The translations under genes were made by a program, and so were the position numbers. The notes below the pieces were generated by a model, which worked only from the letters and a program-made list of their open reading frames with translations, made no database searches and had not been told where the DNA came from. From sequence record PV245934.1: DNA of 64,000 nt. The stretch is one strand, 5' to 3'. Below are positions 32,453 to 53,174 of the stretch, piece by piece (position 1 is the stretch's first letter; each line of letters begins with the position of its first letter). The stretch comes from Escherichia phage sutha.

Positions 32453-32455
32453 CTG

Positions 32456-32737
32456 TTAAATTGCCTTGAATTCTGATGTCTGTGATTCAAAACGAATATC
32501 GCCTTTGATGACTAGCTCAGCATCAAGACCGAATACGACAATGATATGCGCAGAACCTGGATACAGCGTAATGGCAATAGAATCCACCTGGTCTGGAAGC
32601 AAAGTATTCAATACATGAGTCACTTGAGCATGAATTCGAAGCTCAGCTGCATTATCAAACTTTTCAAACATATTATTAGCGATAATTTGGCTAAACACTA
32701 CTTCTACGATTTTAGAATAAGTCGGAAACATATTCAC
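32456..32737 (-). CDS. hypothetical protein (cd.4 position)
   Basis: 93 aa ORF. Confidence 0.6.
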   Translation of the reverse strand: MNMFPTYSKIVEVVFSQIIANNMFEKFDNAAELRIHAQVTHVLNTLLPDQVDSIAITLYPGSAHIIVVFGLDAELVIKGDIRFESQTSEFKAI

Positions 32738-32926
32738 CTCACATAATTTTCTTCAAGCCAATTAATAACATCCAACGCATTATCAAAAGTTGAACCATCT
32801 ACTTTGTCTTCTGTTTCATAATCAAGAACATCTAAGCCTACTCTTCCATCAACAATAGGCCATAAACAAAATAGATATTTCTTTTCTTTTTCAATTTTAT
32901 CACAAAGTCGATAAATCTTTTCTATG

Positions 32927-32934
<8 letters not shown>
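32734..32934 (-). CDS. hypothetical protein (cd.5 position)
   Basis: 66 aa ORF. Confidence 0.55.
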
Positions 32935-34349
<1,415 letters not shown>

Positions 34350-34352
34350 TTA

Positions 34353-34583
34353 TTATTTCTCAACCAATGATTGAATATAATCATGCAAGTCTTTAGATGC
34401 TTTACCCCACTTATTTTGGTATTCATTTTTAAGATTAGCCCGAGATTGAGCTAATAAAACATCATTAGTTGGAGGTAAAGATTCTAACCGTTGAATCTGG
34501 CGTCCATAAATCATTGCAGCCATCTCGGATTCATAAATCAATCCTTTGAGATGTTCAAATTGATGCCATGAAATCATTTGCAT
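34353..34583 (-). CDS. hypothetical protein
   Basis: 76 aa ORF. Confidence 0.55.
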   Translation of the reverse strand: MQMISWHQFEHLKGLIYESEMAAMIYGRQIQRLESLPPTNDVLLAQSRANLKNEYQNKWGKASKDLHDYIQSLVEK

Positions 34584-34873
34584 TTATCCTCTTTTAACTC
34601 TTGACGATAATAACATATCATAGTTTTCTGATCATGTACATATCGTTTTACATCATTAAGCCAAATGCGAAATTCCTGGGAATCTTCAAATGGCATACCG
34701 ACCCAAGCTTTACCATCAATAACTTTAACTTGCCAAGATAGTTTAGCTTCATCATATGACTTTATTTGTACAGGCCAATTAGGATGAACTGTTTCTTTCT
34801 TTACTTCTAGAGGCTTTGTCGAACAACCAACTAGAAGACCAATAGATAATATTACTGCTGATAGTTTAATCAT
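34574..34873 (-). CDS. outer-membrane lipoprotein, candidate o-spanin
   Basis: 99 aa; signal peptide plus lipobox MIKLSAVILSIGLLVGC; ATGA overlap with upstream i-spanin-like ORF. Confidence 0.65.
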   Translation of the reverse strand: MIKLSAVILSIGLLVGCSTKPLEVKKETVHPNWPVQIKSYDEAKLSWQVKVIDGKAWVGMPFEDSQEFRIWLNDVKRYVHDQKTMICYYRQELKEDKCK

Positions 34874-35223
34874 TTAGAAAGGTCCTGGATGTCTTCTGCG
34901 AACTTGTTGAAGGAGTTGTTGATTTGTTTTTCAACCAATCCTGGCTTATGAGCCACCACATCCGCCTTCTTTGCGTCTTTGCGCAGTTTTTCATTTTCAC
35001 GCTCAATAGCAGCAATTGCCTCACGATTTTTATTATTCATCGCATCAATATAATTATACTGAATTCGCAAATTATTTAATGCTAAAGCGTTTTCATTGGC
35101 CGTTTTTGTAATTTCTACAACAGACGTTTCTAATCTTTCAATTTTATTTTTTAAAATTAAAGAAGTTCCGCCCAATGCAATTACAATTAATAGCAAGCCT
35201 GCTGTCGTATTACTTAATTGCAT
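34870..35223 (-). CDS. N-terminal transmembrane coiled-coil protein, candidate i-spanin
   Basis: 117 aa; TM helix AGLLLIVIALGGTSLIL then coiled-coil-like region. Confidence 0.6.
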   Translation of the reverse strand: MQLSNTTAGLLLIVIALGGTSLILKNKIERLETSVVEITKTANENALALNNLRIQYNYIDAMNNKNREAIAAIERENEKLRKDAKKADVVAHKPGLVEKQINNSFNKFAEDIQDLSK

Positions 35224-35717
35224 AAAGTTTTAATAACCTCTATAATATCGTCTTGAGAAAGACCGTTAATTAAAATATGATGTTCAGCCGGAGATTTAGA
35301 AATTTTAAAGCATGCCTCAACATCTTCTGCCATATCTGATGCGCTACGATTTGGATTACTAATTCCAAGACGATGTTTTCCCGTCAAAGGATTAACGATG
35401 ATATAGCATTTACAGTTGTTAATATGAACATTAGGTTGAGTCTGATTAATGAACACATCACAATCATATTTCGCAAGCTGATTTTCTAAAAAGACTTTCA
35501 TCTCCTCAACTGCATCAGGAAGCATATCACGGGCTTGCTCAAGACGACGATTTCGATATTCTTTAATGGTCGTTTTCCGCTTGACTTGCTTAGCTAAATC
35601 TTTCTTAAGATCGGTGATATATCCAACTCGACGATTTCCTTTAAATACAGAAATCCCATCTGTAGTATCACCGTATGCTTCAACGACCATTTCAGTAGTA
35701 ATAAGCTGTAAATCCAT
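35214..35717 (-). CDS. alc: Alc transcription terminator / inhibitor of host transcription
   Basis: 167-168 aa at the T4 alc position between spanin genes and rnlA; early promoter upstream. Confidence 0.75.
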   Translation of the reverse strand: MDLQLITTEMVVEAYGDTTDGISVFKGNRRVGYITDLKKDLAKQVKRKTTIKEYRNRRLEQARDMLPDAVEEMKVFLENQLAKYDCDVFINQTQPNVHINNCKCYIIVNPLTGKHRLGISNPNRSASDMAEDVEACFKISKSPAEHHILINGLSQDDIIEVIKTLCN

Positions 35718-35748
35718 CATAAAGTCCTCATGTTATGTCAGTAAGACT

Positions 35749-35778
35749 ACTGTAACACAACACGAGGGACTTGTAAAC
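35749..35778 (-). promoter_or_regulatory. early promoter (GTTTAC -35) within conserved 54-bp block
   Basis: Minus GTTTAC-AAGTCCCTCGTGTTGTGT-TACAGT; near-identical to block at 21872-21925. Confidence 0.65.
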
Positions 35779-35781
35779 AGC

Positions 35782-37369
<1,588 letters not shown>

Positions 37370-37377
37370 AATAAAAT

Positions 37378-37391
37378 GGGCCTTGCGGCCC
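37378..37391. terminator. hairpin GGGCC-ttgc-GGCCC
   Basis: Perfect stem between nrdB stop and denA start. Confidence 0.5.
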
Positions 37392-37396
37392 ACTCC

Positions 37397-38566
37397 TTAA
37401 AAATATTTTTTAAAACTCATCATAACTTTATCATCAACATCATTATCAATCTGTGCTACAAGGTAAGATGACAGTTCTACTTCTTGTGGCGCGGATTGAA
37501 CATTATCAGAATTAAGATATTCACGAATCCAAGGATACGGATGTTTAACCGGAGCATCAGTAATTGGGCATGGAAGACCACACTGTTTCATACGAGATAC
37601 AGTTAAGTAATCAATAAAGCTCCACATGCTATTTGTATTTAATCCAGGAACATCGCCATCTTTAAATAAATGAACTGCCCAGTCTTTTTCTTGACGGTTA
37701 ACTTCCATGAAAATATCAACTGCTTCTTGTTCACACTCTTGGGCGATTTTAACCCATTCATCACCATCAGTGCCAAGTTGAAGTTGACGAATAATATATT
37801 GGGTGCCTTTAAGGTGAAGCTGCTCATCACGTGCAATGAACTTCATAATCTTGGCATTACCTTCCATAATTTCCATGTTCTTATGGAAGTTAAAGGTACA
37901 TGCGAAAGATACATAAAAACGAATAGCTTCCAATGCGTTGATTACATGAAGGCAAAGATAAAGAGATTTCATTAGTGCCCGTTTAGTATATTCAACAACT
38001 TTGCCTAGCTCTTCTTTACGAAATCCTTCTGATAAAATTCCTTCATAATCTTCAACCGCATTCTGATATTCACGAGTCTTAACTAGAACATCATCATAAT
38101 AGCGACCAATAGATTCAGCACGTTTCATGATAGCTTTATCTAATACAATCTCATCAAATACCTTTGATGGATCAGTATAAAGATTTCGCATAATATGAGT
38201 ATATGAACGGCTGTGAATAGTTTCGCTAAAAGTCCATGTAGCAACCCATGTATCAAGACTTGGGTCTGAAATTAACGACATAAGTACAGCAGACGGCGCA
38301 CGACCCTGAATGCTATCCAAAAGTGATTGATACTTCAGGTTATTAGTAAAAATATCTTGCTGATATTGAGGAAGCTTGTTAAATTGTGCAGCATCCATCA
38401 TTAAGTTTACTTCTTCAGGACGCCAGAAAAATGATAACTGCTTTTCGGTTAAATCTTCAAAAACTTTATGGCGTTGAATATCATAACGCGCAATACCAAG
38501 ACCTGAACCGAAGAACATAGGTTCTTTTAAAACATCAACTGGATTTGTATTAAAAACTGTGCTCAT
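37397..38566 (-). CDS. nrdB: ribonucleotide reductase small subunit NrdB, uninterrupted (no intron)
   Basis: 389 aa continuous ORF MSTVFNTNPVDVLKEPMFFGSGLG...KKYF with di-iron radical signature; T4 nrdB is split by an intron, this copy is not. Confidence 0.95.
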   Translation of the reverse strand: MSTVFNTNPVDVLKEPMFFGSGLGIARYDIQRHKVFEDLTEKQLSFFWRPEEVNLMMDAAQFNKLPQYQQDIFTNNLKYQSLLDSIQGRAPSAVLMSLISDPSLDTWVATWTFSETIHSRSYTHIMRNLYTDPSKVFDEIVLDKAIMKRAESIGRYYDDVLVKTREYQNAVEDYEGILSEGFRKEELGKVVEYTKRALMKSLYLCLHVINALEAIRFYVSFACTFNFHKNMEIMEGNAKIMKFIARDEQLHLKGTQYIIRQLQLGTDGDEWVKIAQECEQEAVDIFMEVNRQEKDWAVHLFKDGDVPGLNTNSMWSFIDYLTVSRMKQCGLPCPITDAPVKHPYPWIREYLNSDNVQSAPQEVELSSYLVAQIDNDVDDKVMMSFKKYF

Positions 38567-38617
38567 AAATTTTCCGCTTAGTTAATAGATAGTGACTCGT
38601 CCGTGAGTCAAATTATA

Positions 38618-40882
38618 TCATAATTTACAGGATGAACAATCTTCAGCTTTTGGAGTTTCTATTTCATAATCATCAGTACCAGAACCATCGCGGGTATTAT
38701 GATAATAGAAATTTTTTCCGCCAAAATACCAAAAATACAAAAGGTCATCAATCATTATTGACATTGGAACCTTTCCTTTTGGAAAAATCTGCGGGTCATA
38801 ATATGTATTTGCTGAAGCTGATTGACATACCCATTTAAGCATAATAGCTACCTGCGTAAGATAAGGTTTATTACCTTTCTTAGCTAATTTCCACGTATAA
38901 TCATAGAGGTCTATGTTATGCTCAATATTGGGCACGACTTGATTAAAGGAACCCTCTTTTGATTCTTTAACAGAGACTGGTCCACGTGGAGGCTCGATAC
39001 CGTTTGTACTGTTAGAAACTTGGGAAGATGACTCACATGGCATAAGTGCTGATAATGTGCTATTACGGATGCCAAAGAGCTTAAGGTCTTCCCGCAGCGA
39101 CGACCAGTCACAAACGTATTTTGGAGCTGCGATTTGGTCAATCTTTTTATTGTACCAGTCGATAGGTAATTCGCCTCGAGACCAACGAGTGTCTGAATAA
39201 TATTCGCAAGGTCCTTTTTCTTTGGCGAGCTTAATGGATGCTTTAATGAGTCCATACTGCAATCTCTCAAATAGTTCATGTGTTAAATCGTTAGCATCTT
39301 CATAAGAAGCAAAGTTACTTGCCAGCCAAGCTGCATAGTTAGTAACACCTACGCCAAGGTTTCGACGCTTTTTAGCTTTTTCTGCTTCAGGAACTGGATA
39401 TCCTTGGTAATCCAAAAGATTATCAAGAGCGCGAACTTGAACTTCTGCTAATTCATTAATTTTATCTTGGTCTTGCCAATCGAAGTTATCCAACACGAAT
39501 GCAGATAACGTACACAATCCAATTTCAGCATCAGGACTATTCACATCATTTGTTGGAATAGCAATTTCACAGCACAAGTTACTCTGACGAATAGGTGCCT
39601 TTTCACGAATAAATGGAGTATAGTTATTCGTATTATCAATGAACTGCACATAAATCCTTGCTGTTCCTGAGCGTTCAGTCATTAGCAATTCAAACAGTTC
39701 ACGTGCTTTAATACGCTTTTTACGAATATTAGGGTCTTTTTCTGCGGCTTCATATAATTCACGGAAACGGTCTTGGTCTTTAAAATAAGAATAATAAAGC
39801 TCGCCACTCATTTCATGCGGACTGAACAAAGTAATGTAGTCGTTCTTTCCAAAACGTTCCATCATCAAATCATTCAGCTGAACGCCATAATCCATATGAC
39901 GGATACGGTTTTCTTCTACGCCTTTGTTATTTTTCAAAACGAGAAGATTTTCAACTTCCAAATGCCAAATAGGATAATAAGCAGTAGCAGCGCCGCCACG
40001 AATTCCACCCTGTGAGCATGATTTAACAGCAGTCTGAAAATGTTTCCAAAAAGGAATAACACCAGTATGGCGTACTTCACCTGTACCAATCTTAGAACCT
40101 TCGGCACGAATCATACCAACGTTAATACCAATTCCAGCGCGTTTGGAGATATATTCAACAATTGAAGCGGAAACCTTATTGATAGACTTCAGCGAATCAC
40201 CTGCCTCAATAACAACACATGAACTAAACTGTCGAGTCGGAGTACGACAACCAGCCATAATAGGAGTTGGTAATGAAATTTGTCGAGTAGATACTGCTTC
40301 ATAAAAACGAATAACATGTTTTAATCTATCAACAGGTTCATCTTGATGTAATGCCATTCCAATAGTCATAAATGCAAACTGTGGAGTTTCATAAATTTGA
40401 CCAGTGGTTTTATCTTTAACGAGATATTTTTCTTTTAATTGCATCGCCCCGGAATAAGTAAATTCCATATCCCGCTCGTGCTTAATTTTTGATTCTAAAA
40501 ATGTAATTTCTTCTGCTGAATATTTTGACAGCAGTTCAGGGTCATATTTACCTTCATTTACACAGTAAGAAATATGGTCAATAAATGAACGTGGTTCATA
40601 TTGCCCATAAACATGCTTACGAAGAGCAAACATTAAACAGCGAGCGGCTACATATTGATAATCAGGCTCTTCAACTGAAATAGAATTCGCAGCAGCCTTA
40701 ATTACAATGGTTTGAATGTCATCAGTGGTCATTCCATCACGGAGATATGATTTAATATTTTCATATAATTCATAAGGATCTACAGATGTTCCTTCGGCTG
40801 CCCAAGATAAAACTTTAATAATTTTTTGTGGATCAAAGCTCTGAGAAACACCACTACTTTTGATAACATTAATTAATTGCAT
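38618..40882 (-). CDS. nrdA: ribonucleotide reductase large subunit NrdA
   Basis: 754 aa from MQLINVIKSSGVSQSFDPQKII... matching T4 NrdA by recall; track ORF has a 32-codon in-frame extension; AGAGGA Shine-Dalgarno before ATG at 40882. Confidence 0.95.
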   Translation of the reverse strand: MQLINVIKSSGVSQSFDPQKIIKVLSWAAEGTSVDPYELYENIKSYLRDGMTTDDIQTIVIKAAANSISVEEPDYQYVAARCLMFALRKHVYGQYEPRSFIDHISYCVNEGKYDPELLSKYSAEEITFLESKIKHERDMEFTYSGAMQLKEKYLVKDKTTGQIYETPQFAFMTIGMALHQDEPVDRLKHVIRFYEAVSTRQISLPTPIMAGCRTPTRQFSSCVVIEAGDSLKSINKVSASIVEYISKRAGIGINVGMIRAEGSKIGTGEVRHTGVIPFWKHFQTAVKSCSQGGIRGGAATAYYPIWHLEVENLLVLKNNKGVEENRIRHMDYGVQLNDLMMERFGKNDYITLFSPHEMSGELYYSYFKDQDRFRELYEAAEKDPNIRKKRIKARELFELLMTERSGTARIYVQFIDNTNNYTPFIREKAPIRQSNLCCEIAIPTNDVNSPDAEIGLCTLSAFVLDNFDWQDQDKINELAEVQVRALDNLLDYQGYPVPEAEKAKKRRNLGVGVTNYAAWLASNFASYEDANDLTHELFERLQYGLIKASIKLAKEKGPCEYYSDTRWSRGELPIDWYNKKIDQIAAPKYVCDWSSLREDLKLFGIRNSTLSALMPCESSSQVSNSTNGIEPPRGPVSVKESKEGSFNQVVPNIEHNIDLYDYTWKLAKKGNKPYLTQVAIMLKWVCQSASANTYYDPQIFPKGKVPMSIMIDDLLYFWYFGGKNFYYHNTRDGSGTDDYEIETPKAEDCSSCKL

Positions 40883-40907
40883 AAGTCCTCTGTAGTAAGT
40901 TACTCCA

Positions 40908-40915
40908 TATAAATA
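40908..40915 (+). promoter_or_regulatory. late promoter TATAAATA for antisense homing endonuclease gene
   Basis: Exact TATAAATA 22 bp upstream of ATG at 40938, then AGGAG Shine-Dalgarno. Confidence 0.6.
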
Positions 40916-40937
40916 TAATTTTATATAGGAGAATATA

Positions 40938-41669
40938 ATGAAATCTGGAATATATGCTATTATAAACACTAAAACCAATAAGCACTATATAGGAAGTGCA
41001 ATTAATTTTGAAGAACGATGGAAACGACACTTCAAAGATTTAGATAATGGAAATCATCATTCAATAAAGCTGCAACGTTCTTATAATAAGCATGGGAAAG
41101 ATGCTTTCGTATGTAAAATCATAGAAGAACTTCCATACGAAAAATCTATCATTATTGAACGTGAAAATTATTGGATACATGAATATGACTCAAAGGAAAA
41201 TGGGTATAATATAGCAGACGCATCGTTTGGGGATACCTTATCTCATCACCCAAGAAAGCAAGAAATCCTTAATAAAATTTCAAATGCAATTAAAAATAAT
41301 AATTCAAAATTATCACCAGAAGAACTTAAGCAAAAACATGGTAGACCTAAAGATATTAAAGGTAAAACTATAGAAGAACACTATGGGTTAGATCGTGCTA
41401 TAGAAATAAGCAAAAAGTTCCAAGAAAGAAACGCTGCACTTAATATGAAAGGCATCAATAATCCATATTATGGACAGACACATACCAATGAAGTTAGAAA
41501 ACGAATTTCTGACTCACAAAGAGGTAAAAAGAAACCCCATCTAAGAGTAAGTATAGATGGGGTAGAATATCCAACAATAGCAGAAGCTGTGCGTCAAACC
41601 GGAATAAGCAGAAAACTTATATCTAAAAGATGTGCTCTAGATTGTTGGGAATCATATTTATACTGCTAA
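40938..41669 (+). CDS. free-standing GIY-YIG homing endonuclease, I-TevI-like catalytic domain with NUMOD/HTH C-terminus
   Basis: 243 aa; first ~100 aa ([21 protein letters not shown]...RWKRHFKDL...[12 protein letters not shown]...IIERENYWI...[13 protein letters not shown]) closely parallel I-TevI; C-term [22 protein letters not shown] and [22 protein letters not shown]; antisense to flanking nrdA/td. Confidence 0.85.
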
Positions 41670-41903
41670 AGTTCTACATTCGTCATATTGTTTTTCCGTT
41701 AAAACAGTAATATCATAATAACAATCTGAAGAAGTTTTAACTGTAGAAATTTTATTATCAAAATACTCACGAGTCATTTTATGAGTATAATATTTTTTGC
41801 CATAAATGACAATAGGCTGTTCTGGTCCTGGAACTTCTAACTCGCTTGGATTAGGAAGTGTAAAAAGAACTACACCAGAAGTATCTTTAAATCGTAAAAT
41901 CAT
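41658..41903 (-). CDS. hypothetical protein between td and nrdA
   Basis: 81 aa ORF, convergently overlaps the endonuclease 3' end by 12 bp. Confidence 0.6.
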
Positions 41904-41926
41904 ATATCCTCACAATTAATAATTAA

Positions 41927-42238
41927 TTACACCGCCATTTTTCCTTTAATAGAAGGGTGTGATTCGTAACCTTTAAGAACGAAATCTTTAGGCCTGAGTT
42001 TAAGAATGTATTCCAATTGTTCTTTAGTAGAAAGATAGCGGAATTTATAAGGCAATCCGCCTATTACCAGTTCACAAAGCTCTTTAGGTTCACGACGCAA
42101 AATTTCTTTACATTGTTCTACGTGATTCATATAGATATGAGTATTACCGCCAGAAAATATCAAATCTCCTGGAATAAGATTACACATCTTAGCTACAATA
42201 TGAACTAACGCAGCATATGATGCAATGTTGAACGGTAG
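41927..42238 (-). CDS. td: thymidylate synthase exon 2
   Basis: Encodes LPFNIASYAALVHIVAKMCNLIPGDLIFSGGNTHIYMNHVEQ...KGKMAV, matching the C-terminal 103 aa of T4 TS; preceded by intron 3' end ...CATAATG. Confidence 0.93.
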   Translation of the reverse strand, partial: LPFNIASYAALVHIVAKMCNLIPGDLIFSGGNTHIYMNHVEQCKEILRREPKELCELVIGGLPYKFRYLSTKEQLEYILKLRPKDFVLKGYESHPSIKGKMAV

Positions 42239-43254
42239 CATTATGTTCAGATAAGGTCGTTAATCTTATCCCGGAATTATATCCAGCTGCATGTCACCAT
42301 GCAGAGCAGACTATATCTCCAACTTGTTAAAGCAAGTTGTCTATCGTTTCGAGTCACTTGACCCTACTCCCTAAAGGGATAGTCGTTAGGCATTTATGTA
42401 GAACCAATTCCACTTATCAGATTTTACACGGTAAGTAACTAATCCTGATGAAATTTCAAAATGTCTAGCCGCATCGGCTGCACATTCAAAAATAATCCCA
42501 TCGCATGAAATCTTTTTGATGTTAGCTGGCTTTTTGCCTTTCATCTTTTCAGATAGTTTAGTTTTAGTTTTTTCTGAATGTTTGTGATTAAAGAACGGGT
42601 TATTTTCACCTGAACGTTTTCGGCACTTTCCACAAGTATCGGCCGAAGATGGTATGCGAACACCGCATTTACAAAACTTGTGGTTTTCTGGATTCCATCG
42701 GCCATTTTTACTTCCGTGTTTACCATAAAGAGCTTTCCGACCATCAGGACCAAGCTTAAGCATCTTAGCTTTAACAGTTTCAGCTCGTTTCTTAGCAATT
42801 TCTTCTTTTAATGGATGATTTGAAAGCACATCGCCAAAAGACGCATCAGCAATATTATATCCATTAATTTTAGAATTTAGCTCTTTAATCCAAAAATTTT
42901 CTCGTTCAATAATCAAATCTTTCTCATATGGAATTTCTTCCAGTACAGAGCATTCAAAAACATTACCATGTTTATTAAAAGACCTTTGAAATTTTATAGA
43001 AGAGTGAACACCGTTTTCAAGGTCTTTAAAATGTCTCTTCCATCTTTTCTCAAAATCTTTAGCACTTCCAACATACACTTTACCGTTTAAAGTGTTTTTA
43101 ATCTGATAAATTCCGCTTTTCATAAACACCTCTTTTTATATAGAAGTATTTATTAAAGGGTAGTCCTACAATTTAGCACGGGATTGTCTACTAGAGAGGT
43201 TCCCCGTTTAGATAGATTACAAGTATAAGTCACCTTATACTCAGGCCTAAATTA
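42239..43254 (-). mobile_element. group I self-splicing intron of td carrying I-TevI
   Basis: 1016 bp between exon 1 end (...VDVFLG, GGT then TAA in intron) and exon 2 start (CTACCG); 5' intron sequence TAATTGAGGCCTGAGTATAAGGTGACTTATACTTG as recalled for T4. Confidence 0.9.
42386..43123 (-). CDS. intron-encoded GIY-YIG homing endonuclease I-TevI
   Basis: 245 aa from [35 protein letters not shown]...; zinc finger CKCGVRIPSSADTCGKC; C-term HTH ...VTYRVKSDKWNWFYINA; matches I-TevI by recall. Confidence 0.93.
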   Translation of the reverse strand: MKSGIYQIKNTLNGKVYVGSAKDFEKRWKRHFKDLENGVHSSIKFQRSFNKHGNVFECSVLEEIPYEKDLIIERENFWIKELNSKINGYNIADASFGDVLSNHPLKEEIAKKRAETVKAKMLKLGPDGRKALYGKHGSKNGRWNPENHKFCKCGVRIPSSADTCGKCRKRSGENNPFFNHKHSEKTKTKLSEKMKGKKPANIKKISCDGIIFECAADAARHFEISSGLVTYRVKSDKWNWFYINA

Positions 43255-43802
43255 ACCTAAGAAAACATCGACACTGCGTTGGTACCATTGTAAATCCAAA
43301 TATCCATTACGCACATTAAACTGATAAAACATATGACAAGGTGGTAATGCCATTTGCTTAAGTTCTGCCGGATTCCATGCTGAAACAATTTGACGTCTAT
43401 CATTTGGCAGTTTTTTAATACGTTCAACAACTTCTATAATTTGATCTACACCACCAAAATCGCGCCACTGTTTTCCATAAATTGGACCAAGTTCACCGCT
43501 ATGGTATCCTAAATCTTTTGCTTGATTTTCGTAATTTTCATCCCAGACTGTTTTGCCTTGAATTAATGAATCATGTTGAATTAATCGCAAATCATTGACA
43601 TTTGTGCTTCCCGATAAAAACCATATTAGCTCAGCAATACAGGCTTTCCACGCTAATTTTTTAGTTGTTACCGCAGGAAAACCTTTAGTTAAATCCCAGC
43701 GTAATTTAGTACCAAACAAAGCAATTGTTCCTGTGCCTGTTCGGTCATCGGTTTCGTAACCATTTTCCAGGATATCTTTAATTAAAAATTGGTATTGTTT
43801 CA

Positions 43803-43803
<1 letters not shown>
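43255..43803 (-). CDS. td: thymidylate synthase exon 1
   Basis: 183 codons from ATG at 43803 (MKQYQFLIKDILENGYETDDRTGTGTIALFG...[30 protein letters not shown]); the track ORF begins at an upstream TTG. Confidence 0.93.
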
Positions 43804-44835
<1,032 letters not shown>

Positions 44836-44845
44836 ATTATTTTCC

Positions 44846-45088
44846 TTAAACAGACTTTTTCACAATTTTCCAATCAGCTTTAAACTGTTCAACGTCAGAA
44901 TGGTAAATCCAGAATCCTGCGCTTTCTCCATCCTCATAAAGAGGGCATCCATCACATTCATCTTCCCATCCCATATCACGTAAAAGATGTTCAGCTTTTT
45001 CAACAAGTTCAGAATCTTTACCGATGATATTAAAATACCATTTACCTCTAACTTCTGAATCTTTGATGCTCTGGCGTTGTAATCTCAT
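44846..45088 (-). CDS. hypothetical protein (frd.2 position)
   Basis: 80 aa ORF. Confidence 0.6.
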   Translation of the reverse strand: MRLQRQSIKDSEVRGKWYFNIIGKDSELVEKAEHLLRDMGWEDECDGCPLYEDGESAGFWIYHSDVEQFKADWKIVKKSV

Positions 45089-45197
45089 TTTATTCTCCTT
45101 AGCAAGCTTTAATCAAAAGGTATAAACAAACTAACATAACTGCTGCCATAATATAAGGTGCGAACATTTTCTTTTCTCCATTAGTTTTGATAGGGTA

Positions 45198-45227
45198 ATA
45201 GTATCACACTACTACCCTGCTGTAAAC
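45198..45227 (-). promoter_or_regulatory. early promoter (GTTTAC -35)
   Basis: Minus GTTTAC-AGCAGGGTAGTAGTGTGA-TACTAT upstream of the 80-aa ORF. Confidence 0.5.
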
Positions 45228-45613
45228 TACTTTTTGAAAGTTTTTCGCAAAAGTTCAATGATTTCATCTACATTGTTTTCGTCTACAATGCAGTGAATTT
45301 TTGTTACGCCAGAAACTGGATCTTCAACTCCAGCTTCATCTTCTTCAAGAGTCGGTTCTTTATACTCGCGAAAACAGTAAAATTCATCTTCACAAATTTC
45401 TGCAAGTCTATCACAAAGGTAAAAATGCTTTCCATTCGCGCATTTAATATGTTTTACCTCTTTAAATCCATCAGCAAAGAAAACTTCTTTAACTTCAAAC
45501 CATCCGCCATTTTCTTGGATAATTTTAACTATTGATGCATTGGATCGTGGGCTATGACTAATAAATGCGTCAATAAGGCTTGGAATAAGTTCATACTTTT
45601 CGCCGATATACAT
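45227..45613 (-). CDS. hypothetical protein (frd.3 position)
   Basis: 128 aa ORF. Confidence 0.6.
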   Translation of the reverse strand: MYIGEKYELIPSLIDAFISHSPRSNASIVKIIQENGGWFEVKEVFFADGFKEVKHIKCANGKHFYLCDRLAEICEDEFYCFREYKEPTLEEDEAGVEDPVSGVTKIHCIVDENNVDEIIELLRKTFKK

Positions 45614-45655
45614 TACGTTTTCCTCATTTTAATGTGGCTTGATGCCCCTTGATAA

Positions 45656-45886
45656 TTACTGTTCAATCAATCCCATGTAAAATTCTGCGTCTTCAGAATC
45701 CATACCATCGCAGTATTCATTAGCCATAAATCGTTCAAGAACTTCTAAAGGACCTTCAATAACAATAGAAAAATTGCAATAATTGGGATCATCATGAATA
45801 CTTGTGATACTAAGTTCAGGATAACGATTACGAATAATTTCTTCAATATATTCAAAATCAACGGTGTCAATATCAACTTTAGCCAT
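45656..45886 (-). CDS. hypothetical small acidic protein
   Basis: 76 aa from [17 protein letters not shown]... with AGAGGA Shine-Dalgarno; the longer track ORF would include its own promoter. Confidence 0.55.
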
Positions 45887-45929
45887 ATTATTTTCCTCTT
45901 TAATCATCAGCAGTATTGCCGATAGTTGT

Positions 45930-45959
45930 ATAGTACCATGGAAGGACAAGGATGTAAAC
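45930..45959 (-). promoter_or_regulatory. early promoter (GTTTAC -35) within repeated cassette
   Basis: Minus GGTTTAC-18 bp-TACTAT; cassette shared with 62249-62338. Confidence 0.6.
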
Positions 45960-45990
45960 CGTTTTGTGAAAAAAATTTTGAAATAAAAAA

Positions 45991-46008
45991 GGGACCTCTA
46001 GGGTCCCC
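45991..46008. terminator. terminator GGGGACCC-ta-GGGTCCC after gene 32
   Basis: Near-perfect palindrome flanked by A-run and T-run, directly downstream of gene 32 stop. Confidence 0.7.
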
Positions 46009-46030
46009 AATTAATTAGTAATATAATCTA

Positions 46031-46939
46031 TTAAAGGTCATTCAAAAGGTCATCCAAGTCCGTGTCATCAGCACTAGATGAACTGCCGGAGCTTGAGCTC
46101 ATAAAATCATCTTCAGTTTTTGTATTGAAGTCATCAACATTGAATGCATCCAAATCATCAGCAACTTTATCGGCTTTCTTAGCAGCAGTTGCAGCGGCAC
46201 CACCCATCACAGCAGTTCCCATAACTTGACTGAACTTAGTGCTCAGTTCTTCAAACGATTTGAACTTATCTTTAGAAGTCATTTCAGAAAGGTCAACCAT
46301 TTGTTCGAACAGTTCTTTCTGGAAAGATTCATCATCAATGTTTGGAATCGCAGATTGATTCAGGAATTTAGATTCATCGTAGTTACTAAAACCAGAAACT
46401 TGTTTAACTTTCAGTACAAAGTTAGCACCTTCCCACGGACAAGTTACATCAACTGGAGTTTCACCCATTTCAACATCAACCGCAATCATTGCATTGATTT
46501 TGTCCCAAATCTTTTTACCAAAACGGTATTTGAATACTTTACCTTCGTTTTCTGGAGCTTGTGGGTCTTTAACAACCAGGATATTAGCCCAATAAGAAGT
46601 TTTACGTTTCAGTTGAGAATATTCGGTTTTGTTTGTATTGTACAGGTCATTTTTACTAATGTACTGACACACCGGACAAGAGTCATAATCGCCGTGTGTA
46701 GATGAACAAGTTTCAATATACCATTTGCCATTTTTCTTGAACCCATGGTTAACAAGAATTGCAAACGGAAGTGCGTCATCTGTTTTTGCCGGCAGGAAAC
46801 GAATTACTGCTTGACCGTTACCCGCATTGTCGAGTTTCAGTTTCCACTCGCCTTTATCTTCAGAAGAAAAACCACCTTTATTGCCATTCAGTTTAGCCAT
46901 TTGTGCAGCGAGTTCAGCAGTAGATTTACGTTTAAACAT
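46031..46939 (-). CDS. 32: single-stranded DNA-binding protein gp32
   Basis: 302 aa; [22 protein letters not shown]...; zinc site [15 protein letters not shown]; acidic C-terminus [16 protein letters not shown]; matches T4 gp32 by recall. Confidence 0.97.
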
Positions 46940-47002
46940 TTTTATTTCCTTTTTAATTTAATTAACAGTTGGTGCTATGACGATGTATGACCTCATAGCT
47001 GG
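46940..47002 (-). promoter_or_regulatory. gene 32 translational operator: A/U-rich leader plus pseudoknot-forming GCUAUGA...UCAUAGC element
   Basis: Minus-strand 5' [66 protein letters not shown] read directly; matches my recollection of the T4 gene 32 autoregulatory operator. Confidence 0.65.
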
Positions 47003-47022
47003 TCAGTGAGATAATTATAATC

Positions 47023-47030
47023 TATTTATA
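47023..47030 (-). promoter_or_regulatory. late promoter TATAAATA upstream of gene 32
   Basis: Plus tatttata is minus TATAAATA, ~85 bp upstream of gene 32 ATG. Confidence 0.55.
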
Positions 47031-47038
47031 ATAAGCAA

Positions 47039-47692
47039 TTAATACTTACAAGATTTCACAGTTTCAATGAAAACACTTTTAGCTTTCTGTGAATCAATAT
47101 TTAAAATTTTTCTATAAGCCTTTAACTTTATAGAATAATTATTCCAGACTAAATTATCAGTTTGTTCATCATGTTTATCAATTATATTTAAAAACGAATC
47201 AAGCAAGATAAACGTTTCAAACGAAATTATGTTCGATTGCAGAAGTTTAAAAATATAACTTGATTGAACTTTTGGATTATACTCAAAGATTTCTTTAAAA
47301 GCAGAAACTTCAACTTTCTTACTAAAATAATAAATGTTGCGAATATCTTCTTCAAACTTAAATTTAATTTGCTTTAAGCGTCCGATATATTCACGATAAA
47401 ACACAAGTGCATCAGCGTCCGATATCTCACCAATCCATGCGTCTTGGTTAGCAACTAAGTTGCTTATGAATATCAAGGTGAGTTCCTTCAATTTATATTT
47501 CTCTGCTAGTTTTTCAAAGAAATATTTATCTCGGCGTTTTTGATACGCATTATCCGAAACACGCATGCACCAGTTATATTTGATTACGTCATACCGACCA
47601 CCAAAATGGTTTTTGCACATCAAGTATAGTTTATATACCGATTTTCCGTTAATATAACGTTCTCCATCAGCAGGCATGCGGAGTTTAATCAT
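47039..47692 (-). CDS. 59: helicase loader gp59
   Basis: 217 aa; MIKLRMPADGERYINGKSVYKLYLMCKNHFGG...; T4 gp59 size and position. Confidence 0.93.
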   Translation of the reverse strand: MIKLRMPADGERYINGKSVYKLYLMCKNHFGGRYDVIKYNWCMRVSDNAYQKRRDKYFFEKLAEKYKLKELTLIFISNLVANQDAWIGEISDADALVFYREYIGRLKQIKFKFEEDIRNIYYFSKKVEVSAFKEIFEYNPKVQSSYIFKLLQSNIISFETFILLDSFLNIIDKHDEQTDNLVWNNYSIKLKAYRKILNIDSQKAKSVFIETVKSCKY

Positions 47693-48027
47693 AGTAGAAA
47701 ATCTAATGTATTAGTTTTTTCACAACGAACAACAGAAGGACGTAAAAGATTTTCGTCAATGGCTTCTGACTGAATTTTTTCAATTATACCTGAAGGAATA
47801 AATTTAGCAAATTGAGTTTCAGGAATAGAGTTTTCTTCCAAGAATGCTGTCGTAGCTTCAAGATAACTCATTCCAAACTCTTCTACCATTTTTTCAATAA
47901 TAAATCCGTTTTCTTGACGATCAAGAAGCTTTGCAATTTCATCCTTTTCTTTCTTAATTGAAAGTTCTTTTTCTGAAAGACCGGTCTCATCGACCGGACG
48001 AATATCATTTAGAGAAAACTGTGTCAT
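47689..48027 (-). CDS. 33: late transcription co-activator gp33
   Basis: 112 aa from MTQFSLNDIRPVDETGLSEKEL...; ATGA overlap with gene 59. Confidence 0.88.
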   Translation of the reverse strand: MTQFSLNDIRPVDETGLSEKELSIKKEKDEIAKLLDRQENGFIIEKMVEEFGMSYLEATTAFLEENSIPETQFAKFIPSGIIEKIQSEAIDENLLRPSVVRCEKTNTLDFLL

Positions 48028-48274
48028 AAAGTTCAACTACCTCTTCAGTTTCAGCTTCAAACACATCACGGTTATCTTTATGATACAAAGCTAACAGACG
48101 ATTAAACATCTTGCCATCAACACCAAGTTCATCTTTGGCACGAATTCGAATATCTTTAATCAATTCATTATAACCGGAAATTTTCAGTTTATGATCAGAT
48201 GCTTCTTTAATAAATTTAGCCAAGTCTTCGCCATGGATAGCTTCATCAAATTCAACCATTTCTTTTTTAGCCAT
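48005..48274 (-). CDS. dsbA: double-stranded DNA-binding protein DsbA
   Basis: 89 aa, overlaps gene 33 start, position as T4 dsbA. Confidence 0.8.
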   Translation of the reverse strand: MAKKEMVEFDEAIHGEDLAKFIKEASDHKLKISGYNELIKDIRIRAKDELGVDGKMFNRLLALYHKDNRDVFEAETEEVVELYDTVFSK

Positions 48275-48282
48275 TATTCACC

Positions 48283-49200
48283 TCAAAATTCATTAATGTT
48301 ATTAGTTAATTTAGAAAGACCCGCTTTTACAAAATATGAATAAATTTTGCCACGCGGTGGTAATTTATATGAATTATAGTAATTCACAATGTTTGAAGCA
48401 ATATTATCAGGAATATAATCAAAATCAATTAGAACTAAATTTTCTTTATATCGATTATATTCAGATTCAGTGAGAAGCACCTTAGCTTGCTCACGGTCAT
48501 TAGCAATAGCTTCAACGATTGAAGTTTTCATTGAAGGAGTTCGTTCACCTTCAACTCTAGTAAACCAAAAGTCAGATCGTACTTTAACTGAAGCAACGTT
48601 ATCCTTTTTGTCACCTTTAAGGATTTTAGTCATACAGTCAATTTCAGCAGAACCGCTTTTAATTTTAACCCATTTCTTGTGCATCGGTGACCATTGCTTA
48701 ACATTTGGGTATTTGTGAAGTTGAGTAAAGTCACCATCCGACGAAATGATTAAAATCTTATGTCCTTCTAAAGAGAACTTTTTAACCAAAACAGCAATAT
48801 GGTCATCTGCTTCATACTTATCAATATCCATAACGATGTATGGCATATAAGCTTTCAATTCATCTATAACTTTATGACTGGATTCAAAATAACCTTCCCA
48901 GTCCCAAGTAGATTCTTCTCGTGCTTTTCCACGGTTTTTCTTATAATAATAAGCAAAATCACGACGCCAGTATCCAGATTTCGCGTTATCAATACACAAT
49001 ACAATTTTAGTGTATCCAAGAGTTTTTGCTTTTTTGACATTAAACTTAATTGAGTTCAATATCAAATGACGAACCATTGATAAATTAATTTTTTCTTTAT
49101 CTGGGAAGTTTACCAAAGCAGTTGAAAGCGCAATTTGACTAAAGTCAATTAAGCAGATTCCTTCTTTGTAATCTTCATCCAGCATCATTTCTAAATCCAT
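48283..49200 (-). CDS. rnh: RNase H (5'-3' exonuclease, FEN family)
   Basis: 305 aa from MDLEMMLDEDYKEGICLIDFSQIALS... matching T4 RNase H by recall. Confidence 0.93.
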   Translation of the reverse strand: MDLEMMLDEDYKEGICLIDFSQIALSTALVNFPDKEKINLSMVRHLILNSIKFNVKKAKTLGYTKIVLCIDNAKSGYWRRDFAYYYKKNRGKAREESTWDWEGYFESSHKVIDELKAYMPYIVMDIDKYEADDHIAVLVKKFSLEGHKILIISSDGDFTQLHKYPNVKQWSPMHKKWVKIKSGSAEIDCMTKILKGDKKDNVASVKVRSDFWFTRVEGERTPSMKTSIVEAIANDREQAKVLLTESEYNRYKENLVLIDFDYIPDNIASNIVNYYNSYKLPPRGKIYSYFVKAGLSKLTNNINEF

Positions 49201-49262
49201 ATGAACCTCGTTCAATTAGTGAGATTTCTATTATATACCATCCGAATCTTAAAGTAAACAAG

Positions 49263-49270
49263 TATAAATA
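49263..49270 (+). promoter_or_regulatory. late promoter TATAAATA (gene 34)
   Basis: Exact TATAAATA 35 bp upstream of gene 34 ATG. Confidence 0.7.
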
Positions 49271-49304
49271 CTTATTATTGAAAACACAATAGGAGCCCGG
49301 GAGA

Positions 49305-52300
49305 ATGGCCGAGATTAAAAGAAAGTTCAGAGCAGAAGACGGTCTGGACGCAGGTGGCGATAAAATAATCAACGTAGCTTTAGCTGATCGTACCGTAGGA
49401 ACTGACGGTGTTAACGTTGATTACCTAATTCAAGAAAACACAGTTCAACAATACGATCCAACTCGTGGATATTTAAAAGATTTTGTAATCATTTATGATA
49501 ACCGCTTTTGGGCTGCTATAAATGATATTCCAAAACCGGCAGGAGCTTTTAATAGTGGACGCTGGAGAGCATTACGTACAGATGCTAACTGGATTACAGT
49601 CTCATCTGGTTCATATCAATTAAAATCTGGTGAAGCTATTTCGGTTAACACTGCAGCTGGTAATGATATTACATTTACTTTGCCATCTACCCCAATTGAT
49701 GGTGATACTATCGTTCTCCAAGACATTGGAGGAAAACCTGGGGTTAACCAAGTTTTAATTGCAGCTTCAGTACAAAGTATTGTAAACTTTAGAGGTGAAC
49801 AAGTACGTTCAGTACTAATGACTCATCCAAAGTCGCAGTTAGTTTTAATTTTTAGTAATCGTCTGTGGCAAATGTATGTAGCTGATTATAGTAGAGAAGC
49901 TGTAGTTGTAACACCAGCGAATACTTATCAAGCGCAATCCAACGATTTTATCGTACGTAGATTTACTTCTGCTGCACCAATTAATGTTAAACTTCCAAGA
50001 TTTGCTAATCATGGCGATATTATTAATTTCGTCGATTTAGATAAACTAAATCCGCTTTATCATACAATTGTTACTACATACGATGAAACGACTTCAATAC
50101 AAGAAGTTGGAACTCATTCCATTGAAGGCCGTACAACGATTGACGGTTTCTTGATGTTTGATGATAATGAGAAATTGTGGAGATTGTTTGACGGGGATAG
50201 TAAAGCGCGTTTACGCATTATAACGACTAATTCTAATATTCGTCCAAATGAAGAAGTTATGGTATTTGGTGCGAATAACGGAACAGCTCAGACAATTGAA
50301 CTTCAGCTTCCGACTGATATTTCTGTTGGTGATACTGTCAAAATTTCCATGAATTACATGCGAAAAGGACAAACAGTTAAAATCAAAGCTGCCGGTGAAG
50401 ATAAAATTGCTTCTTCAGTTCAATTGCTGCAATTCCCAAAACGTTCAGAATATCCGCCTGAAGCTGAATGGGTAACTGTTCAAGAATTAGTTTTTAACGG
50501 TGAAACTAATTATGTTCCAGTTTTACAACTTGCTTATATAGAAGATTCTGACGGAAAATACTGGGTTGTACAACAAAACGTTCCAACCGTAGAAAGAGTT
50601 GATTCTTTGAATGATTCTACTAGAGCAAGATTAGGCGTGATTGCTTTAGCTACACAAGCGCAAGCTAATGTCGATTTAGAAAATTCTCCACAAAAAGAAT
50701 TAGCAATTACTCCAGAAACATTAGCTAACCGTACTGCTACAGAAACTCGTAGAGGTATCGCAAGAATAGCAACTACTGCTCAAGTGAATCAGAACACTAC
50801 ATTCTCTTTTGCTGACGATATTATCATCACTCCTAAAAAGCTGAATGAAAGAACTGCTACAGAAACTCGCAGAGGTGTTGCTGAAATTGCGACACAGCAA
50901 GAAACTAATGCAGGTACTGATGATACTACAATCATCACTCCTAAAAAGCTTCAAGCTCGTCAAGGTTCTGAATCATTATCTGGTATCGTAACCTTTGTAT
51001 CTACCGCAGGAGCTACTCCAGCTTCTAGCCGTGAATTAAATGGTACAAATGTTTACAATAAAAACACTAATAATTTAGTCGTTTCGCCTAAAGCTCTGGA
51101 TCAGTATAAAGCTACTCCAACACAGCAAGGTGCAGTAATTTTAGCAGTTGAAAGTGAAGTAATTGCTGGACAAAGCCAAGAAGGATGGGCAAATGCGGTT
51201 GTAACACCAGAAACGTTACATAAAAAGACATCAACTGATGGAAGAATTGGTTTAATTGAAATTGCTACGCAAAGTGAAGTTAATACAGGAACTGATTATA
51301 CTCGTGCAGTCACTCCTAAAACTTTAAATGACCGTATAGCAACTGAAAGTTTAAGTGGTATAGCTGAAATTGCTGCACAAGTTGAATTCGACGCAGGCGT
51401 CGACGATACTCGTATCTCTACACCATTAAAAATTAAAACTAGATTTAATAGTACTGATCGTACTTCTGTTGTTGCTCTATCTGGATTAGTTGAATCAGGA
51501 ACTCTCTGGGACCATTATACCCTTAATATTCTTGAAGCAAATGAGACACAGCGTGGTACACTTCGTGTGGCTACACAAGTTGAAGCTGCTGCAGGAACAT
51601 TAGATAATGTTTTAATAACTCCTAAAAAGCTTTTAGGTACTAAATCTACTGAAGCACAGGAAGGTGTTATTAAAGTTGCAACTCAGTCTGAAACTGTGAC
51701 TGGAACGTCAGCAAATACTGCTGTATCTCCAAAAAATTTAAAATGGATTGTGCAGAGTGAACCTACTTGGGCAGCTACTACTGCGATAAGAGGCTTTGTT
51801 AAAACTTCATCTGGTTCAATTACATTCGTTGGTAATGATACAGTTGGTTCAACGCAGTCGTTAGAATTATACGAGAAAAATAGCTATGCAGTATCACCGT
51901 ATGAATTAAACCGTGTATTAGCAAATTATTTGCCATTAAAAGCAAAAGCTGCTGACGCAAATTTATTAGATGGCCTAGATTCATCTCAGTTCATTCGTAG
52001 GGACATTGCACAGACGGTTAATGGTTCACTAACCTTAACCCAACAAACGAATCTGAGTGCCCCTCTTGTATCATCTAGTACTGCTACGTTTGGTGGTTCA
52101 GTTTCGGTAAATAGTACATTAACTATTTCTAATACTGGAACGGCAACTCGTCTGATTTTTGAAAAAGGACCTCAAACTGGAACTAACCCAGCACAGACAA
52201 TGAGCATCCGTGTATGGGGTAACCAGTATGGTGGCGGTTCAGATACAACACGTTCTACCGTATTTGAAGTTGGTGATGAAACGTCTAATCACTTTTATTC

Positions 52301-53174
52301 TCAACGCAATAAAGCCGGGAATATAACGTTTAGTATCAATGGTACTGTAATGCCAATAAATGTTAATGCTTCAGGTTCTTTGAACGCGAACGGCGTTGCA
52401 ACATTTGGTAGTTCAGTTACTGCTAATGGTGAATTCATCAGCAAGTCTGCAAATGCTTTCAGAGCAATAAATGGAAATTACGGATTCTTTATTCGTAATG
52501 CTGGTAATGACACCTATTTTATGCTCACTGCAGCCGGTGATCAGAGCGGTGGATATAATGGATTACGTCCATTATCAATTAATAATCAATCCGGTCAGGT
52601 TACAATTGGTGAAAGCTTAATTATTGCTAAAGGTGTTACTATAAATTCAGGTGGTTTAACTGTTAACTCGAGAATTCGTTCTCAGGGTACTAAAACCGCT
52701 GATTTATACACCCGTGCACCGACATCTGATACTGTAGGATTCTGGTCAATTGACATTAATGATTCGGCCACTTATAACCAGTTCCCAGGTTATTTTAAAA
52801 TGGTTGAAAAAACTAATGAAGTGACTGGACTTCCATACTTAGAACGTGGCGAAGAAGTTAAATCTCCTGGTACTTTGACTCAGTTTGGTAACACACTTGA
52901 TTCTCTTTACCAAGATTGGATTACTTATCCAACAACTCCAGAAGCACGTACAACCCGTTGGACGCGTACATGGCAGAAAACTAAAAATTCTTGGTCGAGT
53001 TTTGTTCAGGTATTTGATGGAGGTAACCCTCCTCAGCCGTCTGATATCGGTGCTTTGCCATCTGATAATGCTACAATGGGGAATCTTACTATTCGTGATT
53101 TCTTACGAATTGGTAATGTTCGCATTATTCCTGACCCAGTGAATAAATCTGTTAAATTTGAATGGATTGAATAA
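49305..53174 (+). CDS. 34: long tail fibre proximal subunit gp34
   Basis: 1289 aa; internal repeats of ...TETRRG(I/V)A(R/E)IAT...ITPKKL...; same length as T4 gp34. Confidence 0.95.
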   Translation: MAEIKRKFRAEDGLDAGGDKIINVALADRTVGTDGVNVDYLIQENTVQQYDPTRGYLKDFVIIYDNRFWAAINDIPKPAGAFNSGRWRALRTDANWITVSSGSYQLKSGEAISVNTAAGNDITFTLPSTPIDGDTIVLQDIGGKPGVNQVLIAASVQSIVNFRGEQVRSVLMTHPKSQLVLIFSNRLWQMYVADYSREAVVVTPANTYQAQSNDFIVRRFTSAAPINVKLPRFANHGDIINFVDLDKLNPLYHTIVTTYDETTSIQEVGTHSIEGRTTIDGFLMFDDNEKLWRLFDGDSKARLRIITTNSNIRPNEEVMVFGANNGTAQTIELQLPTDISVGDTVKISMNYMRKGQTVKIKAAGEDKIASSVQLLQFPKRSEYPPEAEWVTVQELVFNGETNYVPVLQLAYIEDSDGKYWVVQQNVPTVERVDSLNDSTRARLGVIALATQAQANVDLENSPQKELAITPETLANRTATETRRGIARIATTAQVNQNTTFSFADDIIITPKKLNERTATETRRGVAEIATQQETNAGTDDTTIITPKKLQARQGSESLSGIVTFVSTAGATPASSRELNGTNVYNKNTNNLVVSPKALDQYKATPTQQGAVILAVESEVIAGQSQEGWANAVVTPETLHKKTSTDGRIGLIEIATQSEVNTGTDYTRAVTPKTLNDRIATESLSGIAEIAAQVEFDAGVDDTRISTPLKIKTRFNSTDRTSVVALSGLVESGTLWDHYTLNILEANETQRGTLRVATQVEAAAGTLDNVLITPKKLLGTKSTEAQEGVIKVATQSETVTGTSANTAVSPKNLKWIVQSEPTWAATTAIRGFVKTSSGSITFVGNDTVGSTQSLELYEKNSYAVSPYELNRVLANYLPLKAKAADANLLDGLDSSQFIRRDIAQTVNGSLTLTQQTNLSAPLVSSSTATFGGSVSVNSTLTISNTGTATRLIFEKGPQTGTNPAQTMSIRVWGNQYGGGSDTTRSTVFEVGDETSNHFYSQRNKAGNITFSINGTVMPINVNASGSLNANGVATFGSSVTANGEFISKSANAFRAINGNYGFFIRNAGNDTYFMLTAAGDQSGGYNGLRPLSINNQSGQVTIGESLIIAKGVTINSGGLTVNSRIRSQGTKTADLYTRAPTSDTVGFWSIDINDSATYNQFPGYFKMVEKTNEVTGLPYLERGEEVKSPGTLTQFGNTLDSLYQDWITYPTTPEARTTRWTRTWQKTKNSWSSFVQVFDGGNPPQPSDIGALPSDNATMGNLTIRDFLRIGNVRIIPDPVNKSVKFEWIE

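Follow-up and report, generated by a model that had tools for sequence, protein, structure and literature searches.

A probable TuIa-type group I intron with an I-TevI ortholog interrupts the td gene of a T4-like phage

The td gene of Escherichia phage sutha lies on the minus strand of the 64,000-nucleotide stretch of DNA analyzed here (PV245934.1, hereafter the window) and is divided by a 1016-nt insert. td exon 1 (43803..43255, 549 nt) ends in GTC GAT GTT TTC TTA GGT, encoding VDVFLG (in its longer form QRSVDVFLG, from CAA CGC AGT ...). td exon 2 (42238..41927, 312 nt including the stop codon) begins with CTA CCG TTC AAC ATT GCA TCA, encoding LPFNIAS. The insert between them (43254..42239) abuts exon 1 with TAA TTT AGG CCT GAG TAT AAG G and contains an open reading frame (43123..42386) that encodes an I-TevI-like endonuclease. 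The td exons, the insert, and the endonuclease ORF are all on the minus strand.

A preliminary description of this DNA placed a td group I intron of 1016 bp at 42239-43254, with an exon 1 that ends in VDVFLG and an exon 2 that starts with LPFNIAS. The window bears out these coordinates, this length, and both exon ends, as well as the 3′ end given for the intron (...ACATAATG, or ...GAACATAATG, at 42239); the strand had been left unstated. The quoted 5′ end, TAATTGAGG, is wrong by one base. It is the T4 sequence; the window has TAATTTAGG (TAATTTAGGCCTGAGTATAAGG), with T at intron nt 6.

Joining the two exons (549 + 312 nt) yields a 286-aa thymidylate synthase. This product covers positions 1-266 of the 266 in Pfam Thymidylat_synt (Pfam accession PF00303, E 2e-95), and the joined exons are collinear with td in phages, such as P922 and Nami, where the gene is uninterrupted. 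An exon junction out of the thymidylate synthase frame had been named in the preliminary description as grounds for dismissing the intron, and the junction keeps the frame.

We compared the insert with 50,697 phage records by megablast and identified 198 full-length matches, 39 of them at 99% identity or above. The BLAST E value is 0 for all 198, so the insert represents no chance pattern. Identity is 99.8% to Mosigvirus SQ17, 99.6% to TuIa (AY262157, a td entry from 2003), and 90.5-90.7% to T4 and its close relatives. The near identity to T4 expected of a member of the T4 allele was not found (90.5% at the nucleotide level, 88.6% at the amino acid level for the ORF). Judged by these identities, the intron belongs to the TuIa-type allele and not to that of T4. 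Taken together with the structural evidence below, we consider it highly probable that the insert is a group I (subgroup IA2-type) intron of the TuIa type, predicted to self-splice, in the td gene of a T4-like (Tequatrovirus-like) phage.

We scanned the whole 64-kb window with Rfam at gathering thresholds and obtained no match (the RF00028 cutoff is 50 bits). At a permissive E-value threshold, RF00028 matches 42287-42517 on the minus strand (36.2 bits, E 3.7e-7). The half of this alignment that covers P3′-P8-P7′-P9 is correct, and its 5′ half threads wrongly through the ORF. The window lacks a gathering-score match because the 754-nt ORF loop in P6a exceeds what the model can bridge. For this reason, we rejected the missing match as evidence against an intron. 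The natural ORF-less intron of phage CE1 scores 73.8 bits against the same 50-bit cutoff and spans the full model (1-253), and the 320-nt intron of Pinarejo scores 63.7 bits. In the Rfam check suggested in the preliminary description, the window itself stays below the gathering score, and the passing score is that of the near-identical ORF-less relative CE1.

We then described the RNA by an explicit helix model in window coordinates that comprises P1-P6, P6a, P7 (as a pseudoknot), P7.1, P7.2, P8, P9, P9.1, P9.2, and P10. In the window, 78 of the 79 pairs are canonical, the exception being C61.U65 at the top of P5. Every pair in P3, P4, P6, P6a, P7, and P8 is canonical, as are three of the four pairs in P5. 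The Rfam registers for P1, P3, and P6 on CE1 were replaced with hand-set ones because they contained non-canonical pairs; the hand-set registers are canonical throughout and keep the U.G pair at the splice site. We also considered a P6 formed by UAGG and CCUA (nt 87-90 with 865-868). This candidate was rejected in favor of P6 at 78-79/864-865 and P6a at 85-90/853-858, registers that are preferred because they covary in phiP4-3, Aes508, and Joad.

P1 (43241..43260) pairs the last six nucleotides of exon 1, UUAGGU, with the guide GCCUGA at intron nt 9-14. It opens with U(-1).G9 at the 5′ splice site and continues with G-C, G-C, A-U, U.G, and U-A; neither the splice-site U.G nor the neighboring G-C varies among the ten introns that we aligned. 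P2 (43223..43240) is a 7-bp hairpin capped by a GUGA tetraloop and is identified by the helix model, covariation, and folding. The 5′ strand of P3, followed by P4, P5, and the 5′ strands of P6 and P6a, occupies 43165..43216 and is identified by Rfam on CE1, the helix model, and covariation. The 3′ ribozyme domain (42250..42402) is identified by RF00028, the helix table, and covariation, and contains the 3′ strands of P6a and P6, P7, P7.1, P7.2, P3′, P8, P7′, P9, P9.1, and P9.2. P7 forms a pseudoknot with P3. The terminal guanosine (omega-G, intron nt 1016) lies at 42239 and is a G in all ten introns.

Helices P7.1 and P7.2 between P7 and P3′, along with P9.1 and P9.2, define subgroup IA. Here, P7.1 (3 bp), P7.2 (5 bp), P9.1, and P9.2 are all present and covary, as in subgroup IA2, to which the T4 phage introns belong. 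The insert combines several hallmarks of a group I intron, namely core helices P3-P8 with the P3/P7 pseudoknot, the P1 U.G pair, omega-G, and an excision that restores the reading frame.

Covariation was assessed in ten ORF-deleted cores (the window, T4, TuIa, SQ17, CE1, Pinarejo, Proteus ABTNLPp2, Aes508, phiP4-3, and Joad). Across this set, 93.4% of cells are paired. Double-sided changes occur in 38 of the 79 pairs, versus 7-16 in controls with partners slid by 1-3 columns, and the covariation score is 0.342 versus 0.05-0.09; ORF loops were excised by hand and the structure was taken from one member of the alignment, and the observed structure is therefore favored in this slide control. None of 500 shuffles matched any of the observed covariation measures. 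Folding the window's core by minimum energy, with the ORF deleted, brings back 67 of 70 nested pairs. It is thus possible to draw a complete group I structure from P1 to P10, with the Rfam score of CE1, covariation, and energy folding in agreement. The preliminary description had held that failure to fold such a structure would count against the intron.

The ORF encodes 245 aa plus a stop codon (intron nt 132-869) and loops out of P6a. The 3′ strands of P6a and P6 are formed by its final ~17 nt (within TGG TTC TAC ATA AAT GCC TAA, WFYINA*), in keeping with a published observation that the I-TevI ORF extends at its end into the structured core (PMC2988022). The protein contains GIY-YIG (Pfam accession PF01541, 1.4e-16), I-TevI_ZnF (Pfam accession PF22635, 1.8e-17), NUMOD3 (Pfam accession PF07460), and I-TevI_DNA-bd (Pfam accession PF20987, 1.9e-31) domains. 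It also matches the solved I-TevI catalytic domain (1mk0/1ln0, E ~3e-57) and DNA-binding domain (1i3j, E 5e-66), with E values overall between 1e-57 and 1e-66. Residues G4 I5 Y6, Y17 V18 G19, R27, H31, H40, E75, and N90 are kept, as are all four zinc ligands (C151/C153/C164/C167). A GIY-YIG domain, a Cys4 linker, a DNA-binding domain, a location in the P6a loop, and a CNNNG motif in the exon are thus found together, as in I-TevI-type systems. In the tests applied, no trait that defines a group I intron or an I-TevI-type endonuclease came out against the assignment. These matches confirm the 245-codon ORF with GIY-YIG domain, zinc finger, and C-terminal HTH that had been read from the sequence alone.

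Relative to T4 I-TevI, the protein is 88.6% identical, with 28 changes in 245 residues. Codon differences comprise 48 synonymous and 28 non-synonymous cases, and dN/dS is 0.13 at a dS of 0.51, which argues that the ORF is under purifying selection. Amino acid changes are densest in the linker and zinc finger (dN 0.10-0.12, versus 0.04 in the nuclease domain). By these comparisons, the ORF is an intact I-TevI ortholog under purifying selection and not T4 I-TevI itself. The earlier label of 'intact I-TevI' holds for the integrity of the frame and fails for the identity of the enzyme. Since the 28 changes are clustered in the linker, the zinc finger, and the domain that binds DNA, the TuIa-type enzyme may differ measurably from T4 I-TevI in its target or spacing preference. 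It is conceivable, if rather unlikely, that this preference is tuned to Mosigvirus-type td and that the window preserves a jump between genera into a td gene of Tequatrovirus type, with a minimal co-conversion tract of 49-59 bp. If true, the altered specificity would be a natural case of co-evolution between an endonuclease and its target.

Two candidate regulatory elements lie upstream of the endonuclease gene. The first is a 12-bp hairpin (43153..43122), formed between AUAAAUACUUCU and AGAGGUGUUUAU, that sequesters the GAGG Shine-Dalgarno sequence together with the opening bases of the AUG. Its fold energy is -16.2 kcal/mol (z -4.4), and the T4 sequence folds alike. All three differences from T4 within the hairpin keep the stem, with nt 118 and 119 in the loop and nt 128 changing U-A to U.G. 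In T4, the hairpin limits translation to late transcripts, and TuIa variants within it have been noted (PMC2988022). The second element is an operator-like sequence, TTGTAGGACTACCCTTTAAT (43152..43171, intron nt 84-103), that resembles the homing site at the exon junction. The two sites agree at 14-15 of 20 positions, a level reached by 55 of 2000 shuffles, which places the resemblance modestly above chance and makes it weak evidence when taken alone. One base of this site differs from T4 (nt 94). The T4 region is an I-TevI operator that overlaps the late promoter of the endonuclease gene (PMC2988022). By analogy, translation of the gene in the window may be held back by the 12-bp hairpin at its ribosome-binding site, and its transcription by the operator that mimics the homing site.

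The exons are a mosaic. The comparison with SQ17 yields differences at 2 of 1016 nt in the intron and at 180 of 861 nt in the exons (109/549 in exon 1 and 71/312 in exon 2). A tract at -1..-42 of exon 1 (43255..43296) is identical to TuIa-type donor exons and continues at +1..+17 of exon 2 (42222..42238). Over the full -42..+17, identity is 59/59 to TuIa, 57/59 to SQ17, and 45/59 to the intronless Tequatrovirus phages P922 and Nami. Outside of the tract this relation is reversed, with 95.5% identity to P922 and Nami versus 77.8% to SQ17. SQ17 was used for the background divergence because TuIa exon 2 is unreliable beyond about +160, probably reflecting an indel in the partial record. The co-converted span covers at least -37..+12 and at most -42..+17. 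It includes a CAACG (CNNNG) motif at -27..-23 of the reconstituted homing site (43277..43281), in keeping with the spacing and motif requirements of I-TevI, which cuts 23/25 nt upstream of the insertion site (PMC2988022). A donor segment that consists of the intron and short flanks centered on the site is the outcome predicted for repair after I-TevI cleavage (PMC2988022). This mosaic suggests homing co-conversion from a TuIa/Mosigvirus-type donor into a Tequatrovirus-type td, with the direction drawn from only a few reference genomes.

Mosaic exons might also have arisen through ordinary homologous recombination between T-even phages that share a host cell, independent of any endonuclease-initiated homing. 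T4-like genomes are heavily mosaic, and the Pinarejo and G28 intron cores combine T4-type and TuIa-type bases. In the records searched, no td exons of another phage match at more than 94.8%, and no match to the 6-kb region exceeds 93.9%, which makes such recombination plausible. We nevertheless regard it as improbable, since the donor-type segment is exactly the intron with 42 and 17 nt of exon, has the insertion site at its center, and takes in the cleavage site at -23/-25; ordinary recombination would not account for an exchange of precisely the intron and the interval from cleavage to insertion. Flanks identical at 59 of 59 positions would be expected at a frequency of ~4e-7 under a background identity of 77.8%. 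In another reading, the endonuclease is an inactive passenger, decaying or domesticated, within an intron that still splices and is now inherited only vertically. Natural ORF loss has a precedent in the deleted introns of CE1 (262 nt), Pinarejo (320 nt), and G28 (445 nt). Against this reading, which we hold to be very improbable, the window ORF is full length with four domains and intact catalytic and zinc residues, its dN/dS relative to T4 points to purifying selection, and near-identical copies occur across genera within exons that are ~20% divergent and carry a short co-conversion tract.

A more radical alternative would dispense with the intron and have td split, or pseudogenized, by a free-standing GIY-YIG gene, with the two halves translated separately. 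Many GenBank records are annotated in this manner, with two td coding sequences ('thymidylate synthase x2') plus a 'homing endonuclease' and no intron feature, and Rfam reports nothing in the window at gathering score. This alternative is scarcely credible given that a complete and covarying group I core flanks the ORF, that the 5′ splice-site U.G and terminal G are present, and that precise joining restores a conserved full-length enzyme; moreover, the annotation of the homologous element in T4 is that of a joined coding sequence.

The element would operate as follows. The RNA is predicted to fold into the P1-P9.2 core, in which an external guanosine would attack after the P1 U.G pair. G1016 would then dock and the exons would be ligated, restoring the VDVFLG|LPFNIAS frame. 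The gene in the P6a loop likely supplies a GIY-YIG nuclease joined by a Cys4 zinc-finger linker to a DNA-binding domain with a minor-groove helix as well as a helix-turn-helix. This enzyme would bind an intronless td at the exon junction and cut at CAACG 23/25 nt upstream, and repair of the break would copy the intron and adjacent exon bases from the donor. The present copy probably arrived by such homing from a TuIa/Mosigvirus-type donor into a Tequatrovirus-type td.

A second GIY-YIG ORF (40938..41669, plus strand) is free-standing and neighbors td. Its product shares 45% identity with the intron enzyme along the entire length and has no zinc finger. The preliminary description called this gene a novel endonuclease, which does not hold because copies that are 100% identical exist in phages ECO07P5 and RPN226 (Klebsiella phages carry copies at ~92%). 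By homology, it is a known free-standing homing endonuclease gene.

The intron carries little weight as a discovery, and its main use is as an annotation anchor. For annotation, the strand and reading frame are settled and td can be entered as one joined coding sequence in place of two genes. The locus also illustrates how group I introns that carry an ORF escape automated Rfam scans. The mosaic flank would be a clean case in nature of homing between phage lineages followed by co-conversion of a short tract. An intron that is 99.8% identical across genera inside exons that are ~20% different is in line with the published view that old introns were transferred recently.

The closest known relatives are the TuIa-type introns of ~39 sequenced T-even-like phages (for example, SQ17, VEc20, and AV109-118). 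These introns occupy the same site, have the same 1016 nt, and are 99.6-99.8% identical to the window over the whole intron, including the endonuclease ORF. The 2-4 point differences fall at nt 13/14 in P1 (with pairing kept), nt 54, and nt 221. The td exons distinguish the window from these carriers, since they come from another lineage (95.5% identity to intronless Tequatrovirus, ~78% to SQ17).

Splicing and homing of group I introns have their model system in the T4 td intron with I-TevI. The window intron shares its gene, site, and length (M12742; PDB 1mk0, 1i3j). The T4 length had been given as 1016 in the preliminary description, and the M12742 intron is exactly 1016 nt. The proposed alignment of the two is gap-free, without indels, and contains 97 substitutions that separate the window from the T4 allele. 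Helices, the ribosome-binding-site hairpin, the operator-like site, the position of the ORF in P6a, domain order, and CAACG at -27..-23 are shared. Over the ribozyme plus leader, 7 of 278 nt are substituted, with the 5′ leader and core accounting for 5/131 and the 3′ core for 2/147; the ORF has substitutions at 90 of 738 nt. All seven non-ORF differences are structurally neutral. In addition to the three in the hairpin, they comprise nt 6, a position in the P1 loop that gains a P10 pair to exon +3, nt 94 within L6a and the operator, nt 883 in the P7.1 loop, and nt 986, which changes G.U to A-U in P9.2. The exon flanks differ from T4 at -4, -16, -19..-21, +9, and +12.

More distant td introns occur in Aeromonas phage Aes508, Proteus phage phiP4-3, and Erwinia phage Joad. 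These have homologous cores in which P3-P9.2 align and covary, and they encode a GIY-YIG ORF in the same P6a loop. They differ from the window intron in the sizes of P7.1, P7.2, and P8 and are inserted 21 nt upstream, right after the ...QR codon, so their P1 pairs with a different exon sequence. We take this insertion site to be that of the Bacillus mojavensis thyA intron and I-BmoI.

The td introns of CE1, GRNsp7, Pinarejo, and G28 share the core and insertion site of the window intron and have lost the endonuclease gene wholly or in part (248-262 nt remain in GRNsp7 and CE1, 320 in Pinarejo, and 445 in G28). The Pinarejo and G28 cores mix bases of the two alleles. The CE1 intron corresponds to nt 1-93 and 848-1016 of the window's intron, with 261 of 262 positions identical and a sole mismatch at nt 928. 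On these comparisons, the locus is a td-intron/I-TevI system in every respect tested, and its specific allele is already in public databases.

Mobile elements in this region have a much broader distribution among phages than the backbone has. Across 40800..46800 of the window, the best 6-kb match in the phage collection is Shigella phage TB004 (93.9%), and no match to the td exons in that collection exceeds 94.8% identity. In contrast, the td intron (43254..42239, minus strand) and the neighbouring endonuclease gene have matches of 99.8-100%. The phage itself has no close representative in the collection.

The neighbouring gene (40938..41669, plus strand) encodes a free-standing GIY-YIG endonuclease of 243 aa. 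It lies between nrdA and an nrdA.2-like ORF, at a position occupied by nrdA.1 in T4, and runs in the opposite direction to both td and nrdA. Its product is 45% identical to the intron-encoded I-TevI ortholog and contains a GIY-YIG domain, NUMOD3 and a weak match to the I-TevI DNA-binding domain; no zinc finger is present among the domain matches of this protein. The preliminary description considered this endonuclease novel, but it was already known: phages ECO07P5 and RPN226 encode 100% identical copies, Ozark and TB004 encode 99.5% identical copies, and Klebsiella phages PKO111 and KP179 encode ~92% copies. A 68-aa ORF (43803..44009, minus strand) between frd (44006..44590) and td is absent from T4, in which frd directly overlaps td. 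A 207-nt hypothetical gene is annotated in the same place in CE1, P922 and Nami.

An Rfam scan of the window (1..64000) at gathering thresholds reported no RNA families. Such a scan overlooks group I introns that carry an ORF, so any further T4-type introns that the window might contain (nrdB, nrdD) would likewise have gone unreported. The td intron contains an operator-like sequence (43152..43171, minus strand) with the codons GGA CTA CCC TTT AAT; if translated, these would give GLPFN, which is also the peptide at the exon junction (G|LPFN). Intron nucleotide 94 is A in the window and G in T4; with this A, the operator-like sequence resembles the homing site at one base more than that of T4 does.

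Four phage loci carry natural td intron derivatives that retain the ribozyme core but in which the endonuclease gene is wholly or partly deleted: CE1 (L005 701-962), Pinarejo (L006 701-1020), G28 (L007 701-1145) and GRNsp7 (L015). The CE1 intron cleanly lacks the segment corresponding to nucleotides 94-847 of the window intron. These introns look like stages of homing-endonuclease decay.

Homologous td introns with a GIY-YIG ORF also occur at a second insertion site, in Aeromonas phage Aes508 (L010 1458-2508), Proteus phage phiP4-3 (L011 1157-2211) and Erwinia phage Joad (L012 544-1632). The cores of these introns covary with the window intron core. Their site adjoins the I-TevI cleavage position in the I-TevI target and precedes the T4/TuIa site by 21 nt, right after the ...QR codon – probably also the offset of the Bacillus thyA/I-BmoI intron.
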